A stretch of DNA of 64,000 bases, from contig CAIYQO010000302.1 of the NCBI GenBank assembly GCA_903928345.1, positions 5,680 to 69,679 of the forward strand, written 5' to 3'. Every line of letters begins with the position of its first letter. Position 1 is the stretch's first letter. Positions 2,486 through 46,708 of this stretch are shown here, in pieces. The DNA comes from an uncultured bacterium. GTDB taxonomy: Bacteria; Armatimonadota; Hebobacteria; CAIYQO01. The position numbers were made by a program, and so were the translations under genes. The notes below the pieces were generated by a model that was not told the DNA's origin, did not search any database, and worked only from the letters and a program-made list of their open reading frames with translations.

Positions 2486-3919
2486 ATGCCTGATCGTCGA
2501 TCCCTACCGCGCAGCACGCCCGAAGCTCAGGGTGTGGCCTCGGCGGCGGTGCTGGCCTTGCTCGCGGATATTGACGCGAACGTATCCGAGCTGCATAGCC
2601 TGATGCTGTTGCGGCACGGGCAGGTGATTGCCGAAGGCTGGTGGGCGCCGTATGCGTCCCACTCCCCGCACATGCTCTTCTCCCTGAGCAAGAGCTTCAC
2701 GTCCACCGCGGTGGGCATCGCGGTGGCGGAAGGCCGGCTGTCGGTCGACGATTGCGTGCTCTCCTTCTTCCCCGAGGACGCGCCGCCCGCGCCTGACGCC
2801 AATCTGCGCGCCATGCGCGTGCGCCACCTGCTGTCGATGTCGACCGGACACGACCACGACACCACGGACCACACACGCGCGCACGAGAACTGGGTGCAGG
2901 CGTTCCTCTCCCTGCCCGTCGAACACGTGCCCGGCACGCACTTCTGCTACAACACCGCGGCTACCTATATGCTCTCGGCCATCCTGCAAAAGTTGACCGG
3001 GGAGACGTTGCTCGACTACCTGCGCCCGCGCCTCTTCGCGCCACTCGGTATCACCGCGCCGACCTGGGAGACCTGCCCGCGCGGGATCAACACCGGCGGC
3101 TTCGGCCTGTCCGTCACTACCGAGGACATCGCACGCTTCGGGCAGCTTTATCTGAACAACGGGCTGTGGCATGGGCGGCGTTTGGTCAGCGCGGCCTGGA
3201 TCGCGGAAGCGACTACCGGGCAGGTCAGCAACGGCGACGACCCCAACAGCGATTGGCAACAGGGGTACGGGTATCAATTCTGGCGGTGCCGGCATAACTG
3301 CTACCGCGGCGACGGCGCGTTCGGGCAATATTGCGTGGTCATGCCCGACCAGGATGCCGTGCTGGCGATCACCGGCGGCCTCGGCGACATGCAGGCGGTG
3401 CTGACCAAGGTGTGGGACCACTTGCTGCCTGGCTTCGCCCCCGCGGCGTTGACCCCCGACTGCGACGCGCAGGCGCGTTTGTCCGACCGGCTGGCCGCCC
3501 TGCGTCACGATCCCCCCACCGGGCAGGCCACCTCGCCGTTGGCGGCACAGGTATCCGGGCGGGAGATACGCCTCGCGCCCAATGCCCCGGGCATCGATGC
3601 GCTGCAATGCACCTTCGGCGACGACGGCATCACGCTCACGTTCCAACAGGGGCGGCGGCGGCGGGCGGTCACCTGCGGCCTGAACGCATGGCAAACGAGC
3701 CGCATCGGCACCCCCCTGCTCCCACGCCCCGCGCAAGTGGCCGCCGCAGGTTGCTGGACCACCCCTGACACCGTGCAACTTGTCCTGCGCTACTACGAGA
3801 CGCCGTTCTACCAGACGCTCACGCTCCGCTTTACCGAGGCGGGTGCCGAGGTAGCCGTGGCGACCAATGTCTCCTTTGGGAGCAACGAAGCGTTGCAACT
3901 CGTGGGCACTTTCGCCTGA
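2486..3919 (+). CDS. Serine hydrolase of the beta-lactamase family (class C / esterase-like).
   Basis: SxxK motif (FSLSKSF) and Y-x-N motif (CYNTAA). Length 477 aa. Tightly packed in the same plus-strand operon. Confidence 0.75.
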   Translation: MPDRRSLPRSTPEAQGVASAAVLALLADIDANVSELHSLMLLRHGQVIAEGWWAPYASHSPHMLFSLSKSFTSTAVGIAVAEGRLSVDDCVLSFFPEDAPPAPDANLRAMRVRHLLSMSTGHDHDTTDHTRAHENWVQAFLSLPVEHVPGTHFCYNTAATYMLSAILQKLTGETLLDYLRPRLFAPLGITAPTWETCPRGINTGGFGLSVTTEDIARFGQLYLNNGLWHGRRLVSAAWIAEATTGQVSNGDDPNSDWQQGYGYQFWRCRHNCYRGDGAFGQYCVVMPDQDAVLAITGGLGDMQAVLTKVWDHLLPGFAPAALTPDCDAQARLSDRLAALRHDPPTGQATSPLAAQVSGREIRLAPNAPGIDALQCTFGDDGITLTFQQGRRRRAVTCGLNAWQTSRIGTPLLPRPAQVAAAGCWTTPDTVQLVLRYYETPFYQTLTLRFTEAGAEVAVATNVSFGSNEALQLVGTFA

Positions 3920-3939: not shown

Positions 3940-5016
3940 ATGTCATCTGCGCTGACCCATCGCGAACGCGTTTTGCTGGCGCTGGACCACCGGGAGACGG
4001 ACCGCGTGCCGATCTCGATGATCGGCTCGTTCATCAACCCGCCGGCGCGGGCGCGGCTGGATGCCTACCTGCGCCGGGAGCGCGGGATGAGCAGCGACGC
4101 GTACCTGGCGGAGGCCGTTGATCTGCGCGCCGTGGCACCGCGCTACGTCGGCCCGACGCTTCCCACGGGCACGGATGAGTGGGGGGTGCACCGCACCGCG
4201 ATCTCCTTCGGCGCGGATGCCTACGACGAGATCGATAACTACCCGCTGGGTGAGATGACCGATATCGCCGACCTCGACGCCCACCGCTGGCCGCGTCCAG
4301 AGTGGTTCGACTACTCCGTGCTCCCCGAGCAGATCGCCGCCGCGCGCGCGGGGGGTGACTACGCCACCTGGCTTTATTTCCCGACGAACCCCTTCGAAGC
4401 GAGCTGGTACCTGTTCGGTTTCGAGCGCATCTTTGAAGCGATGCTCGAGACGCCCGAGCTGGTACACACCCTGCTGGAGCGCGTTACCGACTGTATGGCC
4501 GCCCGGCTACGTGCCGCGCTGGAGGCGGTGGACGGGGGATTCGACCTTGTCTACACCGGCGACGACATCGCCGGGCAGCAGGGGCTGCTCATGTCGTTGG
4601 GCATGTGGGAGACCTTCGTGAAGCCGTGCCACCAGCGGCTGAACGCCATCAGCCACGAGTTCGGCACGCGGGTCATCTACCACTCCGACGGCGCGGTGAC
4701 CGCCGCGGTGCCGGGGTTGCTGGACATGGGGATCGACGTGCTGGAAGCCCTGCAGTTCGACGCCGCGGGGATGGACCCCGCCGACCTGAAAACGCGCTTC
4801 GGCGACCGCCTGTGCTTCGCCGGCGGGGTCAGCGTGCAGCACACCCTCCCCTTCGGCACCCCGGACGACGTGCGCGCGGAAGTCCGCCACCTGCGCACCA
4901 CCCTCGGCCACCACGGCGGCTACCTCCTCGGCCCCTCGCACGCCATCCAGGCCGACACCTCAGCGGAAAATATCGTGGCGCTGTTCGACACGGCGCTGGA
5001 GACGGTCGCCGGGTGA
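3940..5016 (+). CDS. Uroporphyrinogen decarboxylase (URO-D) family protein, non-HemE type.
   Basis: URO-D-like N-terminus (RVPISMIG instead of the HemE PVWxMRQAGR) and conserved C-terminal block (VIYHSDG...GMDPADLK...FAGGV). Starts 21 nt after the upstream gene. Confidence 0.65.
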   Translation: MSSALTHRERVLLALDHRETDRVPISMIGSFINPPARARLDAYLRRERGMSSDAYLAEAVDLRAVAPRYVGPTLPTGTDEWGVHRTAISFGADAYDEIDNYPLGEMTDIADLDAHRWPRPEWFDYSVLPEQIAAARAGGDYATWLYFPTNPFEASWYLFGFERIFEAMLETPELVHTLLERVTDCMAARLRAALEAVDGGFDLVYTGDDIAGQQGLLMSLGMWETFVKPCHQRLNAISHEFGTRVIYHSDGAVTAAVPGLLDMGIDVLEALQFDAAGMDPADLKTRFGDRLCFAGGVSVQHTLPFGTPDDVRAEVRHLRTTLGHHGGYLLGPSHAIQADTSAENIVALFDTALETVAG

Positions 5017-6198: not shown

Positions 6199-7209
6199 CT
6201 ACCGCCCGTAAATTTCCTTGCTCAGCGCGAAGAACTCCTCGCACATCGCGTCGATGGCGGCGCGGGTGTGGCCGGCGCCGACGGGGTCGGTGTACCAGCG
6301 CGGGATGAGCCCGCCGGCGGGACGGCCCAGCGTCTGCGTCATCCGGCGGGCATAGGCGCGCACCTCCGGCAGCGAGCGCTGCATGCCCATCTGGATATCC
6401 ACCCCGCTGAAAAAGGTCAGGCGCCCCCCGAAACGTTTCCCGAGCAGCTCGAGGCCCATATTCTCCTGCTGGTCCATGTGGACGACATCCAGCCCGATCT
6501 CGATAAGGTCGTCCAGGATGTCCACGATATAGCCGCAACTATGCAAAAACGTGCGCAGGCCGCGCGCGTGGGCGGCAGCGAAGACGCGCGCATAAGCGGG
6601 CTTCCAGATTTCGCGCCAACTCGTCGGGGAGATCATCAACCGGTTCTGCAGCCCCCAGTCGTCGCAGAAGATCAGGGCGTCCGCGCCGGCAGCCGCGAAC
6701 TTCTCCACCGCGACCAGGTTCATCTCCACCAGGATATCCAGCAGCGCCTTCAACTCGTCGGGATACTCGTAGATATCCGTCCAGGTGTTCTCCAACCCGC
6801 GGATGAAGTGGATGCGCTCGTACAGGGAGACGCCGTAGGAGAGCAGAAACTTGTCCCCGGCGCGCTCGCGGGCACCCTCGAGGGCGGTCCAGCGCGACGG
6901 GTCGTGGATGTCGGGGATGTGGAGCTTGTCGAAATCCGCCCAGTCGAGCAGCGGGTAGACCTTCACCTCGCCGAGTTGCGTGGTGCCCAGATTCTCCCAC
7001 ACCGCGCCCCATTCGTCGGTACCGCTGGCCGGGCGCCCGTCGGGGCTGGGACTCATGCCCATCCCGGCAAAGTCGCTGCCGTAGGGGTCGGGAAAGTCGA
7101 AGGGGAAGCGGTCGGGCCCGGAAAAGGTGATCGCGGCGTGCACCACCTCGCGGCTGGTCATCATGGCGGAGTCTCCCATTGCGAAACTGCGCCGATGGTA
7201 ACAGCGCAC
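6199..7209 (-). CDS. URO-D family protein, second paralog.
   Basis: 336-aa ORF with URO-D-family architecture (LIFCDDWG, FFSGVD). Exact start uncertain (several in-frame Met). Confidence 0.6.
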   Translation of the reverse strand: MRCYHRRSFAMGDSAMMTSREVVHAAITFSGPDRFPFDFPDPYGSDFAGMGMSPSPDGRPASGTDEWGAVWENLGTTQLGEVKVYPLLDWADFDKLHIPDIHDPSRWTALEGARERAGDKFLLSYGVSLYERIHFIRGLENTWTDIYEYPDELKALLDILVEMNLVAVEKFAAAGADALIFCDDWGLQNRLMISPTSWREIWKPAYARVFAAAHARGLRTFLHSCGYIVDILDDLIEIGLDVVHMDQQENMGLELLGKRFGGRLTFFSGVDIQMGMQRSLPEVRAYARRMTQTLGRPAGGLIPRWYTDPVGAGHTRAAIDAMCEEFFALSKEIYGR

Positions 7210-7320: not shown

Positions 7321-8769
7321 ATGTTGAAACAGGAGTTTGTGAAGATCACGGAGCAGATCTTCGAGGTGCCGGTGACGTATCGCGCGGGAATGCGCGTGCC
7401 GGCGCGGGTGGTGGCGGACGAGCGGATTTTGGAAGCCGCCCTCGGGGACAATTCGACCGAGCAGTTGGTGAACACCACCATGCTGCCCGGCGTGGTGCGC
7501 TACGCGCTGGCCATGCCGGACATCCACCAGGGGTACGGGCCGCCCATCGGCTGGGTGATTCCCATCGACGCCGCGACGGGCGTCATCTCCCCCGGCGCCA
7601 CGGGGTACGACATCAACTGCGGCGTGCGCCTGTTGCGCGCCGAGGTGGAAGCCGACGAGGTGGTGCCCTTCATGGACGGCCTGGTGCGCGCGCTCTTCAA
7701 CAACGTGCCAAGCGGCGTGGGCAAAGGCGGGGCACTGCGCCTCTCCGACCACGACATGGAAGGCGTGCTGGAAGACGGTGCGCGCTGGGCGGTGCGCAAA
7801 GGTTACGGCGTGCAGGAGGACCTGGAGGTTACCGAAGAAGGCGGCGCCATGCCCGGTGCCGACGCGACGACGGTCAGCCCCTCCGCCAAAGCGCGCGGGC
7901 GCGACCAACTCGGCACGCTGGGCAGCGGCAACCACTTCATCGAGGTGGGCAAGGTCACGGAAATCTTCGACCCCGCCATTGCGGAGGCCTTCGGTCTCTT
8001 CGCGGGGCAGGTGGTGGTGTGGATTCACTCCGGCTCGCGCGGGCTGGGGCACCAGGTCTGCACGGACTACGTGAAGCGCATGCAGAAGTCGGTACGCGAC
8101 TACGATATCACCCTCCCCGACCGCGAGCTGGTGTGCGCGCCCTTCACCTCCCCGGAGGGGCAGGAATACTTCGCGGCAATGGCGGCGGCGGCCAACTTCG
8201 CGTGGGCCAACCGCCAGGCGATGGCGCACCTGGTGCGCCAGACCTTCGACGACGCGCTGGCCGGCAAGGTGCGCCGCCGGGAGTTGCACCAGCTCTACGA
8301 CGTGACGCACAATATCGTAAAGCGCGAGACGTACGAGATCGACGGCGTCGCGCGTGACCTTATCGTGCACCGCAAAGGCGCCACACGGGCCTTCGGACCG
8401 GGGCGCGTCGAAGTGCCGCGCGCCTACCGCGCCGTCGGGCAGCCGGTGCTGGTGCCCGGCAACATGGGCACGGCGAGTTACATCCTGGTAGGCACCGAGA
8501 CAGCGATGACCACCACCTTCGGCAGCGCCTGCCACGGCGCCGGACGCGCCATGAGCCGCTCGAAAGCGCTCAAACAGGTGGACGGCCACATGCTGCAGGA
8601 GCGGCTGGCCCGCGCCGGCATCGTGGTGCGCGGCGGCAGTTGGGACGGCCTGGCCGAGGAAGCCCCGGAGGCGTACAAGAACGTCGACCTCGTGGTCAAC
8701 GTGGTGCACCAGGCCGGCATCGCCCGTAAAGTCGCCCGCACCGTGCCCCTCGGCGTCATCAAGGGGTAG
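7321..8769 (+). CDS. rtcB: RNA-splicing ligase RtcB (3'-phosphate/5'-OH RNA ligase).
   Basis: Hallmark motifs MPDIHQGYG, GYDINCGVR and GSGNHFIEV. The listed ORF begins at a TTG (7315). The ATG at 7321 aligns with archaeal and Thermus RtcB N-termini. Confidence 0.9.
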   Translation: MLKQEFVKITEQIFEVPVTYRAGMRVPARVVADERILEAALGDNSTEQLVNTTMLPGVVRYALAMPDIHQGYGPPIGWVIPIDAATGVISPGATGYDINCGVRLLRAEVEADEVVPFMDGLVRALFNNVPSGVGKGGALRLSDHDMEGVLEDGARWAVRKGYGVQEDLEVTEEGGAMPGADATTVSPSAKARGRDQLGTLGSGNHFIEVGKVTEIFDPAIAEAFGLFAGQVVVWIHSGSRGLGHQVCTDYVKRMQKSVRDYDITLPDRELVCAPFTSPEGQEYFAAMAAAANFAWANRQAMAHLVRQTFDDALAGKVRRRELHQLYDVTHNIVKRETYEIDGVARDLIVHRKGATRAFGPGRVEVPRAYRAVGQPVLVPGNMGTASYILVGTETAMTTTFGSACHGAGRAMSRSKALKQVDGHMLQERLARAGIVVRGGSWDGLAEEAPEAYKNVDLVVNVVHQAGIARKVARTVPLGVIKG

Positions 8770-8826
8770 CGAAAGGTCGGTTCGCTTACGGGAATCTCTC
8801 CTAGACGCGGCCCCCCACCACCCTGA

Positions 8827-8998
8827 CCCCCTCCCCCGTAACGTCCTGTGACAGGGGAGGGGGAATCGGAATAACAAGTGTAGGCGCAGGCTTTAGCCTG
8901 CGATAAGTACTGGTACCGCTTGCAATATCGAGCGCAGGCTGAAGCCTGCGGCTACATTTTCTCCCTTCCCCCCTCACAGGACGTTACGGGGGAAGGGT
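8827..8998. repeat. Composite palindromic element: two inverted copies of a ~38-nt hairpin module flank two REP-like units GCGCAGGCTnnnAGCCTGCGGCTAC.
   Basis: Hairpin cccctcccc/ggggagggg with loop gtaacgtcctgtgaca (8827-8864) and its inverse cccttccccc/gggggaaggg with loop ctcacaggacgttac (8963-8998). Between them are gcgcaggctttagcctgcg (8883-8902) and gcgcaggctgaagcctgcggctac (8932-8955). Confidence 0.6.
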
Positions 8999-9125
8999 CG
9001 GGGATGGGGGGGCGCGCCGACAGGCGCGGAACCGCAAAGTAAACCGGATTGGGTAGCGCCATATTTTAGTTTTTAGCTTTTGTCTTGCATGATAGCCGCA
9101 AGGGATGTCGAATACAGAGGTTGTT

Positions 9126-9452
9126 ATGATCACCTACGACAAGGGCACATTGCTTATCGACCGCGCGCAGGAAGGCGAGGATGTCCATCCCTTGCTGGAG
9201 ACCGGGCGGACGGAGCGCTGGTTTCTCGAGTTGCGCATCACCGAGCAGGCGGCGCTGGAATACCTGATCGACGCGGAGATCGTCGGCGACGACATCCCCG
9301 TGCGCTACATCGCACGCGACGGGCAAAGCTTCACCGGCATCGCGCAGGTGGAGGAATCCCTCTGCGCCGACGAGCAGAAGCTCTTCCTCCTCCGCGGCTA
9401 CGGCAAGCCCCCCGCCGTCTTCCTGGCCGACAGACCGGATAAAATGGGGTAA
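9126..9452 (+). CDS. Hypothetical small protein (~108 aa).
   Basis: ORF 9105..9452. The ATG at 9126 has a GAGGT RBS 5 nt upstream. An AT-rich promoter-like stretch lies at 9060-9100. No recognisable domain. Confidence 0.4.
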   Translation: MITYDKGTLLIDRAQEGEDVHPLLETGRTERWFLELRITEQAALEYLIDAEIVGDDIPVRYIARDGQSFTGIAQVEESLCADEQKLFLLRGYGKPPAVFLADRPDKMG

Positions 9453-9586
9453 CCATCCCGCGCGGTGAATCTTCTGTGATTCTCAGAAGGAATCCGCTCC
9501 ACCCCGTTGAAAAGTTCTACAAGGGCGTTATGCCGCAGCGTTGGCATGACGCCCGTCCATTGCTACCCTGAACACTGGAGTGGTTG

Positions 9587-10384
9587 ATGAAAATCGTCGT
9601 TTGTATCAAGCAGGTGCCGCAGACCACCAACGTCAAGATCGATCCGGTGACCAATACCCTCGTGCGCGAGGGCGTCGAGTCGCAGATCAATCCCTTTGAT
9701 CTCTATGCCCTGGAAGAGGCCGTGCGCGTGAAGGAACGGCTGGCCGCCGCCGGCACGGAGAGCACGGTCACGGTGATCTCCATGGGTCCGCCGCAGGTGG
9801 ACGCCGCGTTGCGCGAAGCGATTACCCTCGGCGCCGATGACGCGGTGCTCCTCTCCGACCGCGCGTATGCCGGCTCCGACACGTGGGCCACCTCGTACGC
9901 GCTGGCGATGGCGATCAAGCAGCTCGCCGCCGACCTGGTCTTCTGCGGCATGCAGGCCATCGATGGCGATACCGCGCAGACGGGCCCCGGCATCACCGTG
10001 CATATCGACCTGGCGCTGGCGGCCTATGTGGCGAAGATCGACGAGATCTCCCCCAAGCGCGCCACCGTCCGCCGCCTGCTCGAAGAGGGCTACGAAGTGT
10101 GCGAGGTGCAGTTGCCCGCCGTCTTCACCGTGGTGAAGGAGATCAACGAGCCGCGCACCCCCAGCCTGCGCGGCAAGATGAAGGCGAAGTCCGCCCAGAT
10201 CCCCGTGTGGACCGCCGCCTCCCTCGGCCTGGACCCCGACAAATGCGGCCTGAAGGGCAGCCCCACGCAAGTGGTCAAGATCTTCAGCCCCGAACACCGC
10301 GCCGGCGGCGAACGCTGGGACGGCGACGCCCCCGATCTGGCGGCCAAGCTGCTGGAAGTGATCCGGGAGCGGATTACCGTGTAA
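9587..10384 (+). CDS. etfB: Electron transfer flavoprotein beta subunit.
   Basis: MKIVVCIKQVPQTTNVKIDP... is a canonical EtfB N-terminus, and the length is ~265 aa. Confidence 0.85.
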   Translation: MKIVVCIKQVPQTTNVKIDPVTNTLVREGVESQINPFDLYALEEAVRVKERLAAAGTESTVTVISMGPPQVDAALREAITLGADDAVLLSDRAYAGSDTWATSYALAMAIKQLAADLVFCGMQAIDGDTAQTGPGITVHIDLALAAYVAKIDEISPKRATVRRLLEEGYEVCEVQLPAVFTVVKEINEPRTPSLRGKMKAKSAQIPVWTAASLGLDPDKCGLKGSPTQVVKIFSPEHRAGGERWDGDAPDLAAKLLEVIRERITV

Positions 10385-10491
10385 TGAAAAATGAAAATTG
10401 AAGAGTGAAAAATGCAAATTCCCGGTTCTCGGATACCGCATTTTTCATTTTCAATTTTTCATTTTCCACTTTTCATTCCAAAGGACCTATC
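10384..10491. repeat. AT-rich heptamer-repeat palindrome between etfB and etfA: TGAAAAA-like x5 then TTTTTCA-like x6.
   Basis: gtaATGAAAAATGAAAATTGAAGAGTGAAAAATGC ... GCATTTTTCATTTTCAATTTTTCATTTTCCACTTTTCAT. About 30% GC in a ~70% GC genome, with 7-nt periodicity. The two arms are reverse complements. Confidence 0.55.
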
Positions 10492-11694
10492 ATGTCAATT
10501 CGCGTACTCGAAGACAATTGCACCGGCTGCAAGCAGTGCGTCAAGGCCTGCCCGCAGATGGCGATCAGTATGGACGGGAAACTGGCGACGATCGCGCTGG
10601 ACAACTGCAACTTCTGCGGTTCCTGCGTGAGCACGTGCAAGTTCAAGGCCATCACCATCGAGATCGAAAAGCAGGCGCGGGAAGACCTGTCTGCTTACTC
10701 GGGCGTATGGGTGTTCGGCGAGCAGGACGGCGGCCACCTGGCCGGCGTGGTGCCCGAACTCATCGGCGCCGGACGCAAGCTGGCCGACAAGCGCGGCTGC
10801 AAGCTGGGCGTGGTGCTGCTCGGGGATAATATCGCCGAGTTGGCCGCCGCCGTGGCGAAGTATCCGGTAGACCTGGTCTACGTCTACGACCACCAAAAAC
10901 TCGCCCGCTATCGGCCCGAACCTTACTCCCGCGTGCTCTCCGCGCTGGTGCGCAAGTTCAAGCCGGAGATCGTGCTCGCCGGCGCCACCACCACCGGGCG
11001 CGGCTTCCTCTCCCGCGTGGCCGTCGACCTATACACCGGCCTCACAGCGGACTGCACGGGCCTCGAGATCGGCGACGACGGGCTGCTCTACCAGACCCGC
11101 CCGGCCTTCGGCGGCAACATCATGGCGACGATTCTCTGCCCGTATACCCGGCCGCAGATGTCCACCGTGCGCCATAAGGTGATGCCCGCCGTGCTGCCCG
11201 GCGACACGGTGCGCGCGGAGATCATCAACGTCGAGCCGCAGGAACAGCTCCTCGCCTCCCGCGTGAACATCACCGACTTCATCCGCGACGTCACGCAGAA
11301 GGTAAACCTTGTCGAAGCCGACGTGATCGTCTCCGGCGGGCGCGGCATGGGCAAGCCGGAAAACTTCGCCATCCTGCACGAGCTGGCCGACCTCCTCGGC
11401 GGCGCCGTCGGCTCCTCCCGCGCCGCGGTGGACGCCGGCTGGATGCCCTACCCGCATCAGGTAGGCCAGACGGGTAAAACGGTCTGCCCCAAGCTCTACA
11501 TCGCCTGCGGCATCTCCGGCGCCGTCCAGCACCTCGCCGGCATGCAATCCTCCGATTGCATCATCGCCATCAACCGCGATAAAGACGCCCCCATCTTCCA
11601 AGTCGCCGACTTCGGCTTCGTAGGCGACGCCCTGGAAGTGGTGCCCGAGCTGATCAAAGCCATCAAGGCCAGCAAGGTAGCGGTGGCGATCTAA
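10492..11694 (+). CDS. etfA: Electron transfer flavoprotein alpha subunit with N-terminal 2x[4Fe-4S] ferredoxin domain (FixB-like).
   Basis: [21 protein letters not shown]...[11 protein letters not shown] gives two CxxCxxCxxxC clusters, followed by the EtfA FAD-binding C-terminus ([11 protein letters not shown]). Start at 10492 chosen over the listed 10405. Confidence 0.85.
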
Positions 11695-11706
11695 AGCAGC
11701 GTAAAT

Positions 11707-11810
11707 TTGGAGTGCGGCGCGAAACGCCGCTTTCACTGGCACCGTTCTTCCCCTCGCTACGGTGAGGAAGGTCGAGACCAACGAAAGCGGCGTTTCGCGC
11801 CGCACTCCAA
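11707..11810. terminator. Large bidirectional hairpin with 28-bp perfect inverted repeats between convergent genes.
   Basis: ttggagtgcggcgcgaaacgccgctttc (11707-11734) is the exact reverse complement of gaaagcggcgtttcgcgccgcactccaa (11783-11810), with an inner sub-hairpin. Confidence 0.55.
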
Positions 11811-11830
11811 AACACCATCGAAGCGCGCTT

Positions 11831-12598
11831 CTACTCCGCCCCAACCTTCTCCAGCAACAACCCGATTTTATCGATCTCGATGCAGATCAATTCATCGATA
11901 ATCGCTTCGCTTGACCAACCACGGTCAAGCATGAAATGCTGTGGGCCGACCGAAGTGACTTTCCACCCTCGTGCCCGCAGCACGGCTGCCTTTTCCTCCC
12001 GTGCCAGTGACAGCGGAGCTAGTAACAGATCCACGGCTCGCTGGAATCCCCAAAGATAGGCCACGGTATGCTCCACGGTTTCGTACGCGTAAAACATGCC
12101 TGGCCGAACCCTCGTATGTTCCAGGTCGATAATGGATTGCCGTAGACGCATGGATAGCGGCAGATCGGCGGTGAAGTCCATAAATCGGATATACGCGGCA
12201 TCGTATCGCGGCTTCGATGGTATTTCCGTCCATTGATAAGTCGCCAATACGGCACGACTTGCCTGGCGCACGGCCGCCCATCCCGGTCGATGCAAAGTGG
12301 AAAGACGAGCTTCCGCATACGCCGTGCGCTCTTCTGGCGATGGAGGCTGCTTCCAGGGGATAGGTACCGACTCCACATGCGCGCAGGCATCCACTACCTG
12401 CTGCAATGCCGTCTGCTGCACCTCGGTTGGATGCCAATCATCCCGACCGACAAGGACAGTGCACCAGTGTTTCAATTCCGTACGCAGCACACCAGGGTCA
12501 GTGTCTTCCGGCATATATGCCACCAACGCCTCCGCCGGCAGCGCCAGCGCCTGCAAGGTGGTGATCAATTGCTCGAGTGGGGATTCGCAGTAGTTCAT
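11831..12598 (-). CDS. Hypothetical protein (~255 aa).
   Basis: Long ORF. Start at MNYCESPLEQL (12598) fits spacing with the upstream small gene (ends 12615). No recognised domain. Confidence 0.45.
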   Translation of the reverse strand: MNYCESPLEQLITTLQALALPAEALVAYMPEDTDPGVLRTELKHWCTVLVGRDDWHPTEVQQTALQQVVDACAHVESVPIPWKQPPSPEERTAYAEARLSTLHRPGWAAVRQASRAVLATYQWTEIPSKPRYDAAYIRFMDFTADLPLSMRLRQSIIDLEHTRVRPGMFYAYETVEHTVAYLWGFQRAVDLLLAPLSLAREEKAAVLRARGWKVTSVGPQHFMLDRGWSSEAIIDELICIEIDKIGLLLEKVGAE

Positions 12599-46564: not shown

Positions 46565-46598
46565 GATTGCGGATTTTGGATTGCGGATTGCGGATTGA
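46565..46598. repeat. Tandem heptamer repeat (GATTGCG)n, ~5 units.
   Basis: cGATTGCGGATTTTGGATTGCGGATTGCGGATTGAag lies immediately after the LptD-like stop. Confidence 0.5.
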
Positions 46599-46608
46599 AG
46601 CCGGAGAA

Positions 46609-46686
46609 GGCGGGACAGCCACCACTTTTCCGCAACTAGCGTGCAATAACGGAGCCCGGGGTTGGAAAAGTGGTGGCAGTCCCGCC
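46609..46686 (+). terminator. Long hairpin (26-28-bp near-perfect inverted repeat) after the LptD-like gene.
   Basis: ggcgggacagccaccacttttccgcaac ... gttggaaaagtggtggcagtcccgcc (2 mismatches), 24-nt loop. Confidence 0.5.
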
Positions 46687-46708
46687 TTTCCCGGGGTATG
46701 AGGTGACT

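Follow-up and report, generated by a model that had tools for sequence, protein, structure and literature searches.

Why are the two subunit genes of an electron transfer flavoprotein (ETF) separated by an AT-rich palindrome of heptamer repeats in a GC-rich genome? The question arose for a stretch of 64,000 nt from an uncultured member of the Armatimonadota (Hebobacteria; CAIYQO01; GCA_903928345.1, contig CAIYQO010000302.1, positions 5,680–69,679, forward strand), which is called the window here. In this window, etfB and a ferredoxin-fused etfA (Fd-etfA) lie on the + strand with a spacer of 107 nt between them (10385–10491). An earlier interpretation made from the nucleotide sequence alone (the sequence-only reading) had taken the spacer for a protein-binding array or for an RNA-level attenuator or processing site that decouples the expression of the two genes. 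We compared the spacer with the corresponding junctions of related genomes and with similar repeats elsewhere. The palindrome has the arms, the symmetry, the unit consensus, the placement and the orthologous position of a cassette that carries a four-helix-bundle/S23p gene (family PF05635) at this junction in close relatives, but it has no open reading frame (ORF). Its origin from such a cassette is well supported. We consider it probable that the palindrome is an ORF-less relic, made up of the terminal arms of a cassette resembling the intervening sequences (IVS) of rRNA genes, and that it is tolerated as a selfish remnant rather than being a purpose-built regulator of the ETF genes.

Anatomy of the etfB–etfA spacer

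The etfB gene (9587–10384) codes for 265 amino acids and matches PF01012 (E = 1e-42). The product of Fd-etfA (10492–11694, 400 amino acids) is a fusion of EtfA with a 2x[4Fe-4S] ferredoxin and contains the Pfam domains Fer4 (PF00037), ETF (PF01012) and ETF_alpha (PF00766). The spacer has a GC fraction of 0.327 compared with 0.647 for the window and is the lowest-GC stretch of 107 nt in the 64 kb, where the minimum elsewhere is 0.40. The sequence-only reading had put the spacer at about 30% GC and the genome at about 70%; the latter figure is slightly too high (64.7% in the window).

About five direct heptamers, followed by about six reverse-complement ones around a GC-rich centre, had also been described, and this arrangement was recovered. 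Tandem Repeats Finder (TRF) detected a left arm of period 7 with 5.1 copies of AATGAAA at 10383–10418. It is composed of the five tandem units AATGAAA, AATGAAA, ATTGAAG, AGTGAAA and AATGCAA, the first of which overlaps the TAA stop codon of etfB (10382–10384). The GC-rich centre of 19 nt (TCCCGGTTCTCGGATACCG) follows at 10420–10438. The right arm (10439–10479) reads CATTTTT, CATTTTC, AATTTTT, CATTTTC, CACTTTT and CATTCC, for which TRF reported 5.6 copies of CATTTTT with period 7 at 10439–10477. Its units are the reverse complement of those on the left, and over 39 nt the arms (10380–10418 and 10442–10480) are 77% complementary.

The sequence-only reading had suggested a prediction of the RNA fold. 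The minimum free energy structure was a hairpin at 10383–10477, in which 10383–10415 pairs with 10438–10477 in an A-U-rich helix of 32 bp, with the GC-rich centre as the apical loop (19–22 nt in the prediction). The 5' arm of the helix contains one bulge of 1 nt, the 3' arm a bulge of 1 nt and one of 7 nt. The fold has a free energy of −31.7 kcal/mol (z = −4.7), and 0 of 200 shuffled sequences folded equally well. For the duplex of the two arms −27.1 kcal/mol was calculated; the ORF-containing cassettes described below span −18 to −71 kcal/mol. In the RNA, the predicted stem runs from the etfB stop codon to 2–3 nt before the etfA ribosome-binding site (RBS). This RBS (AAAGGA at 10480–10485, with the ATG at 10492; feature 10480–10494) adjoins the stem on its 3' side, and the predicted fold leaves it essentially unpaired.

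The pattern TGAAAAATGAAAA, allowing at most two mismatches, had 8 matches in the window, all within the locus, where 0.27 were expected by chance. No further copy was found in the 64 kb with the 2-mismatch pattern or with a scan using the position weight matrix (PWM) described below. Thus the further TGAAAAA-type arrays, for which a search had been proposed, are absent from the window, which contains only a different, direct array at 46565. Neither tblastn nor a family hidden Markov model applied to the six-frame ORFs revealed a four-helix-bundle gene in the window. Inspection of the arm ends (GTGTA/ATGAAA and TTTCATT/CCAAAGG) revealed no target-site duplication. No sigma-70-like promoter was predicted in 8800–12200, and a terminator scan of the spacer was negative on the + strand. 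With its A-U-rich composition and with CCAAAGGACC next to it on the 3' side, the stem lacks the G+C-rich stem plus U-tract by which an intrinsic terminator is recognized. With Rfam 15, the region 9000–12000 gave no family at the gathering score and no rRNA match. Models of miRNA hairpins scored 16–26 bits against thresholds of 42–135 and were rejected as sub-threshold matches to a generic hairpin.

The etfB–etfA junction in related genomes

The etfB–etfA junction was compared in 80 loci from GTDB representative genomes and in metagenome contigs. At locus L088, the closest relative, EtfB and EtfA are 94.7% and 95.0% identical to the proteins of the window, and the two loci share a gene for an MGH1-like glycoside hydrolase downstream as well as a GC-rich palindrome behind etfA. 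The L088 spacer carries a PF05635 gene (ORF of 381 nt), which is flanked by six AATnnnG units on the left and six CATTnnn units on the right, followed by AGAAGGAC and the ATG. The window has five plus six units in the same phase and with the same RBS layout (AAAGGAC, then ATG), and its 19-nt centre stands in place of the L088 ORF plus a post-ORF segment of 19 nt. Thus the palindrome lies at the orthologous position of an ORF-containing cassette. In a manual count, heptamer by heptamer, the right arms of the two loci were ~71% identical. Since the four-fold degenerate sites of the flanking genes are 74–78% identical, vertical descent with drift is sufficient to account for the divergence of the arms.

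The order etfB, PF05635 gene, etfA was found in L085/L086, L087 and L088/L089. In L006 the spacer measures 511 nt, and its ORF matches PF05635 (23S rRNA-intervening sequence protein; E = 2.5e-14) and TIGR02436 (E = 2e-21). When the L006 ORF was used as a query, the nearest homologues were on contigs that also bear close EtfA relatives; the four junction ORFs were among its six best matches and are 64–73% identical to each other. In L006, L085, L087 and L088, 4–9 heptamers of the AATGnAG type stand to the left of the ORF and start a few bases past the etfB stop codon, while 4–6 of the CTnCATT type stand to the right and end ~15–20 nt before the etfA ATG. When the left arms of these four loci and of the window were aligned, all five were in phase, with invariant A.T columns every 7 nt.

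An identical spacer turned up in just two further metagenome contigs (L001 and L002), which most likely belong to the same species as the window; the sole difference between L001 and the window was a run of N at a scaffold gap. Among the GTDB representatives scanned, the best match to the window was 83%. Most relatives at ≤66% EtfA identity have 0–28 nt between etfB and etfA, and the outgroups L011 and L012 have 0 nt, so that the structure parts cistrons which lie close together in most of the more distant relatives. In the close clade (78–95%), all spacers were larger and mutually unrelated in sequence, with lengths of 23, 34, 36, 69, 93, 107, 114, 139, 143, 161, 186 and about 500 nt. Some relatives have the complete four-helix-bundle cassette at the junction, some have hairpins with other repeat arms or one rich in GC, and some have just 23–36 nt. 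A spacer unique to this organism, with directly adjacent genes in its relatives, had been named as evidence against a special role of the structure. Here the sequence proved to be organism-specific, but the genes of the close relatives are not adjacent.

An ORF-less repeat-armed hairpin is present at the junction in four clade members, namely the window, L009 (an AT-rich repeat hairpin of 93 nt), L170 (a hairpin of 139 nt) and L171. The L171 element (1640–1800, in the Armatimonadota metagenome-assembled genome (MAG) GCA_054642535.1) is an ORF-less palindrome of 161 nt (−58.7 kcal/mol) with octamer arms, (GTTAGAAC)n and (GTTCCAAC)n, so that the repeat period is not always 7. In L003, the closest relative that lacks the four-helix-bundle gene, the spacer is 69 nt long and almost no heptamers are left. 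The spacers of L008, P0011 and L172 are down to 34, 36 and 23 nt. Together, the junctions of L009, L170, L171, L003, L008, P0011 and L172 fit a decay series.

We then considered the direction of change on a neighbour-joining tree of EtfB plus EtfA (~15 taxa). The four ORF-containing loci are spread over three subclades, and an ORF-less locus is closely related to every one of them; the key groupings have 97–100% bootstrap support. The window groups with L088 at 100%, and L003 joins this pair at 98.5%. L004 and L087 are grouped at 97%, and L005 and L006 at 100%, with L009 joining at 95.5% and L085 at 98.5%. The simplest history suggested by these groupings would be a single insertion in the ancestor of the clade and repeated loss of the ORF afterwards.

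Other palindromes were observed at this junction. In L005, the sister of the ORF-bearing L006, a perfect GC-rich hairpin of 114 nt (1338–1451, −61.5 kcal/mol) replaces the cassette, so that the junction accepts unrelated palindromes as well. In Marinifilum (Bacteroidota), heptamer palindromes of AATTACG and CGTAATT lie between etfB and etfA (L061, 9863–9991; L065, 9912–9994), whereas in several sister species of these two only about 12 nt separate the genes. A 21-kb region of Marinifilum L064 contains heptamer arrays at four further sites (3248–3341, 4959–4996, 6492–6583 and 7796–7827). Two of them were read; they lie at stop/start junctions and enclose no four-helix-bundle gene. A deltaproteobacterial MAG (L045, 9840–9991) has a palindrome of hexamers behind the stop codon of etfB, with (GGTAAA)n in one arm and (TTTACC)n in the other; its etfB–etfA spacer folds with −53 kcal/mol.

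Heptamer-armed cassettes and related elements

PF05635 genes with heptamer arms were then surveyed beyond the ETF operon. JGI metagenomes were scanned with a profile of 31 four-helix-bundle proteins, and 80 unrelated loci were obtained; this sample was drawn with peptide patterns of one subfamily, and many of its flanks are truncated by contig ends. The 150 nt on each side of the gene were tested for periods of 4–11 at a threshold of 0.71. Period 7 alone was enriched, with 39/78 upstream and 40/77 downstream flanks, compared with 0–1 for periods 4–6 and 8–11. At least one arm was present in 56/80 loci and both arms in 23, with a median arm length of ~5.3 units. Heptamer-periodic segments occurred at 3.5/kb within 200 nt of the gene versus 0.115/kb in the remainder of these loci. 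Upstream arms have the consensus AA[A/T]TG[C/A]A, and downstream arms have the reverse complement of it. In 19/22 cases the gene upstream has the same orientation, and in 13/19 the left arm starts at most 16 nt past the stop codon of that gene, as it does in the window. Of 34 strictly defined heptamer palindromes in the sequence retrieved to that point, 28 enclose a PF05635 gene.

The palindrome of the window belongs to this family by its inverted arms of 7-nt period on both sides, its unit consensus and the start of its left arm near a stop codon. A PWM was built from 79 arms that flank four-helix-bundle genes elsewhere. The left arm of the window scored 6.9 bits per heptamer and the right arm, as reverse complement, 7.7. 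Composition-matched shuffles scored 0.4–0.7 +/- 1, and 0/5000 reached the values of the window. The two arms are the two best PWM matches in the whole 64 kb. The third-best (3.5 bits per unit) is the direct-only array at 46565–46597, with the units GATTGCG, GATTTTG, GATTGCG, GATTGCG and GATTGAA. It begins 2 nt past a TGA stop codon, is followed by a GC-rich hairpin (region 46601–46695) and an ATG at ~46709, and has no visible inverted partner. This array may be the solo left arm of another decayed cassette.

As a measure of pairing between arms, the complementarity of the best 24 nt was determined. It was 90% within a cassette versus 71% between cassettes (p = 2.5e-14). Such mirroring of variant units within a cassette is predicted by selection for pairing or by a palindromic origin. 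In several cassettes (L006, 9544–9981; L102, L106, L111, L112, L132 and L157) the ORF reads into the right arm before its stop codon, which gives the protein a repeat-encoded C-terminal tail of variable length.

Plasmids were surveyed by tblastn against PLSDB, and six regions were inspected. The plasmid-borne genes came mostly from Cyanobacteria, and also from Bernardetia and Chlorohelix. Inverted heptamer arms were present in 6/6 plasmid-borne PF05635 genes from cultured bacteria, with other units: AGGTCGG in Nostoc punctiforme, AGTGATT (11 copies) in Bernardetia, GATGAAG in Chlorohelix, TTTAGAT in Gloeocapsa, and CCCCAAT plus AAATCGT in Planktothrix, where we take CCCCAAT to be the classical cyanobacterial STRR1 unit (short tandemly repeated repetitive sequence, STRR). 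The units differ while the architecture is kept; thus period and symmetry are constant and the unit sequence is lineage-specific. Five of the six genes lie directly upstream of or between co-oriented genes, and the sixth ~150 nt before cas1. The neighbours of the five were drmD/pglX (DISARM and BREX genes), a helicase and an N6-methylase, DUF1156 and Swt1-HEPN, or, downstream, xisH(-xisI) and recF. Cultured carriers of a full cassette include Nostoc punctiforme PCC 73102 (pNPUN01, NPUN_RS34315), Planktothrix agardhii PCC 7805 (p1, NMG85_RS21755) and Gloeocapsa PCC 7428 (GLO7428_RS25575). Cassettes beside genes of defence systems or mobile elements were seen in L178 (Planktothrix agardhii p1), L175, L176, L177 and L173. 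A figure legend on CRISPR-associated domains in the FLSHclust CRISPR survey names the domain 23S_rRNA_IVP (PMC10910872), and heptamer arms might have been taken for CRISPR arrays.

The arrangement resembles the S23p-type IVS of Coxiella and Leptospira. In Coxiella burnetii, the 23S IVS forms a 28-bp stem of terminal inverted repeats with the S23p ORF in the loop, and two or three tandem copies of GACAGAT plus one degenerate copy precede the ORF, in a number that varies between strains (Warrier et al., PMC4990558). The site of RNase III cleavage is where the first repeat begins, the excised RNA decays fast and the ORF is subject to reductive evolution (PMC4990558). The window likewise has a long closing stem of terminal inverted repeats with tandem heptamers in the stem region (5.1 + 5.6 copies), and a PF05635 ORF, also prone to decay, is enclosed in the orthologous cassettes of L088, L006, L085 and L087. 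In contrast to an IVS, the element of the window lies in the mRNA spacer between etfB and etfA and not in helix 25 or 45 of 23S rRNA, it has no ORF in the loop, and its arms consist wholly of heptamers. Cleavage by RNase III is reported for Coxiella, whereas for the stem of the window it would follow by analogy.

Intergenic heptamer arrays of 2 to >10 units, of unexplained function and often placed directly ahead of a start codon or behind a stop codon, have been described in bacteria (MacGregor 2015, PMC4679880), and TAACTGA repeats occur in Beggiatoaceae, Cyanobacteria and Bacteroidetes (PMC4679880). The arms studied here are like the STRR and TAACTGA arrays in being intergenic heptamers near start or stop codons and in occurring in Cyanobacteria and Bacteroidota. 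Unlike the arms studied here, those arrays were described as direct ones, with no mention of an enclosed four-helix-bundle gene or of inverted partner arrays. The terms "four helix", "S23" and "intervening" are absent from PMC4679880. In open-access PMC and bioRxiv, we found nothing beyond the Coxiella IVS paper that links heptamer repeats to four-helix-bundle genes; an earlier description elsewhere is possible.

Avd, the accessory variability determinant of diversity-generating retroelements, resembles PF05635 and is placed in the same CDD family (PMC10053308). Unlike in the case of Avd, no reverse transcriptase was seen beside the cassettes of L085–L089, and template and variable repeats were not searched for. 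Searched with their profile, the cassette proteins match PDB 2RLD (5 chains, E = 1e-26). Avd itself is pentameric, has a four-helix-bundle fold and binds nucleic acid. Hairpins of repetitive extragenic palindromic (REP) sequences, bacterial interspersed mosaic elements (BIME) or miniature inverted-repeat transposable elements (MITE) are likewise non-coding palindromic inserts between co-transcribed genes, and can serve as mRNA stabilizers or processing sites. In contrast to them, the element of the window is a single copy in 64 kb, its arms are tandem heptamers and not a unique inverted repeat, and it probably derives from a gene-carrying cassette. We know of no link between heptamer-armed cassettes and a REP-associated tyrosine transposase (RAYT) or any other transposase.

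Further palindromes were noted in the window. A GC-rich one begins 12 nt past the etfA stop codon (11706–11812) and has a perfect stem of 29 bp, in which GGAGTGCGGCGCGAAACGCCGCTTTC pairs with its complement (−79 kcal/mol, z = −10.9). L088 retains the two arms (4687–4792), and the palindrome is probably a terminator or a REP-like element between convergent genes; an Rfam match to MIR1437 at this site was sub-threshold and was dismissed as spurious. Two small REP-like palindromes, at 8884–8900 (GCAGGCTTTAGCCTGC) and 8923–8950 (GCAGGCTGAAGCCTGC), are intergenic and lie downstream of rtcB; a T-run behind the second one makes it look like a terminator.

Origin and significance of the palindrome

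The history that we favour begins with a complete cassette, that is, tandem heptamers, a four-helix-bundle/S23p gene of ~120–145 codons (PF05635) and the same heptamers inverted. Such a cassette would have been inserted between etfB and etfA in an ancestral member of the Armatimonadota clade, and several lineages would have kept it intact. In the lineage of the window the ORF would have been deleted, leaving the two arms around the 19-nt centre. On the etfBA transcript, the arms would pair into the stem of 32 bp and loop out the insert, which places the etfB stop codon and the etfA RBS side by side. This proximity could limit the harm done to the coupled expression of the ETF subunits. The helix would be long enough for RNase III, and a cut would separate the etfB and etfA mRNAs. 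By analogy with the excision of S23p-type IVS, the stem is probably a substrate of RNase III that is cleaved between the cistrons. An RNA-level processing site, one of the roles proposed by the sequence-only reading, is thus the most plausible activity of the structure. The other roles proposed there fared differently: no sign was seen that the spacer had evolved as an ETF-specific attenuator or protein-binding operator, and the identical sequence was found only in L001 and L002.

Whatever its origin, the hairpin could since have been exapted and be maintained to set the ratio of EtfB to Fd-EtfA, by way of mRNA stability after processing, as a 3' stabilizer for etfB, or by acting on etfA as a thermosensor or an attenuator of translation. 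In favour of this are the stability and statistical significance of the stem, its position exactly between the stop codon and the RBS, the ORF-less repeat-armed hairpins kept in the window, L009, L170 and L171, and the identity of the spacer in L001 and L002. These two contigs, however, are 100% identical to the window throughout and are therefore uninformative on selection. The predicted fold does not sequester the RBS, and L003, the nearest relative without the four-helix-bundle gene, has lost almost all heptamers. The junction also ranges from 23 to about 500 nt with unrelated sequences among close relatives. At so variable a site, a hairpin is more likely to be a relic that is tolerated than a regulator that has been tuned, and very different inserts at one junction are better accounted for by the decay of a selfish insert than by conserved regulation. 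We therefore regard exaptation as unlikely. It is also improbable that an ORF-less, MITE-like palindrome was acquired independently and was inserted into the resident cassette or replaced it. ORF-less heptamer palindromes do exist elsewhere (L098, 403–488; between etfB and etfA in Marinifilum L061 and L065; several at other junctions in L064), and the arms of the window resemble the AAATGAA-type arms of the unrelated cassettes L095, L097, L099 and L092. Against such an acquisition stand the lack of a second copy in the 64 kb, the lack of an evident target-site duplication, and the match to L088 in unit number, phase, distance from the stop codon and RBS context, with a divergence compatible with the neutral rate. 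Moreover, we know of no transposase or mobility mechanism for heptamer-armed elements.

A function at the DNA level, either as a protein-binding array (operator or iteron) or as an internal promoter that controls etfA, would agree with the tandem short repeats, with an AT-rich tract that could be bent or bound, and with a sub-periodicity of 21 nt in the left arm, which equals two helical turns. The promoter scan was negative, however, and the complementarity of arms from the same cassette points to a pairing constraint and not to one-sided binding sites. In addition, the unit sequences vary freely among lineages while period and symmetry persist, and the element travels with the gene and not with a regulator. 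Taken together, this makes a DNA-level role very improbable. In many bacteria, the long simple-sequence repeats are most commonly heptanucleotide repeats (Mrazek 2007, as cited in PMC4679880), which could suggest chance replication slippage unrelated to any element. Slippage alone would not be expected to yield two inverted arrays that are in register and fit the consensus of cassette arms, with an orthologous full cassette in L088, and this explanation is effectively refuted, with a negligible chance of being right.

Several observations weigh against a decayed IVS-like cassette and were considered together. The variable three bases of the heptamers are A/T in the window and G/C in L088, so that all units differ en bloc, as independent acquisition of a palindrome would also have it. 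The centre of the window is only weakly similar to the post-ORF 19-mer of L088 (CCGG..CGG). Attempts to derive the loop by MAFFT alignment, either from the stretch behind the ORF in L088 or from the spacer of L003, were ambiguous and gave short CCGG/CGGA blocks only; therefore the end-points of the deletion cannot be fixed. The stem is A-U rich and bulged. The AAWTGMA consensus is not universal, since the 80-locus sample came from the peptide patterns of one subfamily, and plasmid cassettes use other units. Finally, loss of the ORF as opposed to repeated gain rests on parsimony with ~15 taxa, where some deep nodes have 40–60% support, and the divergence of the four-helix-bundle proteins is not significantly correlated with that of their hosts (r = 0.34, n = 6 pairs). 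Given these weak nodes and the non-significant correlation, loss of the ORF is no more than the probable direction of change.

For the locus itself, the decayed cassette explains an odd AT-rich structure without a dedicated ETF regulator and predicts cleavage by RNase III between etfB and etfA. As a decayed remnant whose origin is largely explained, the locus is of modest importance, and its value lies in the recurrent architecture that it exposed. Stand-alone "four helix bundle protein" genes are abundant in Cyanobacteria, Bacteroidota, Chloroflexota and Armatimonadota. To our knowledge, the function of the S23p/four-helix-bundle proteins of rRNA IVS has been unknown for some 30 years. The comparison joins these IVS proteins, the stand-alone genes and the intergenic heptanucleotide repeats, a link that we did not find in the papers searched.

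Tentatively, and as a possibility that we would not yet call likely, PF05635 (S23p/Avd-like) genes bracketed by inverted heptamers may be widespread "intervening sequences of operons". Such elements would land after co-oriented stop codons, be looped out and cuttable by RNase III, and decay to ORF-less palindromes or solo arrays; examples of their sites are within ETF operons, beside DISARM/BREX genes, before cas1 and before xisHI. We did not find them described as such in the papers searched (open-access PMC/bioRxiv). If this is true, many unexplained heptamer repeats of bacteria (STRR, TAACTGA-type) would be footprints of such cassettes, and arms of about five units might be binding sites of a pentameric protein. 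If the link holds, the origin of the repeats and the role of the protein would become directly testable, and annotators would gain a rule for spotting inserts in operons.

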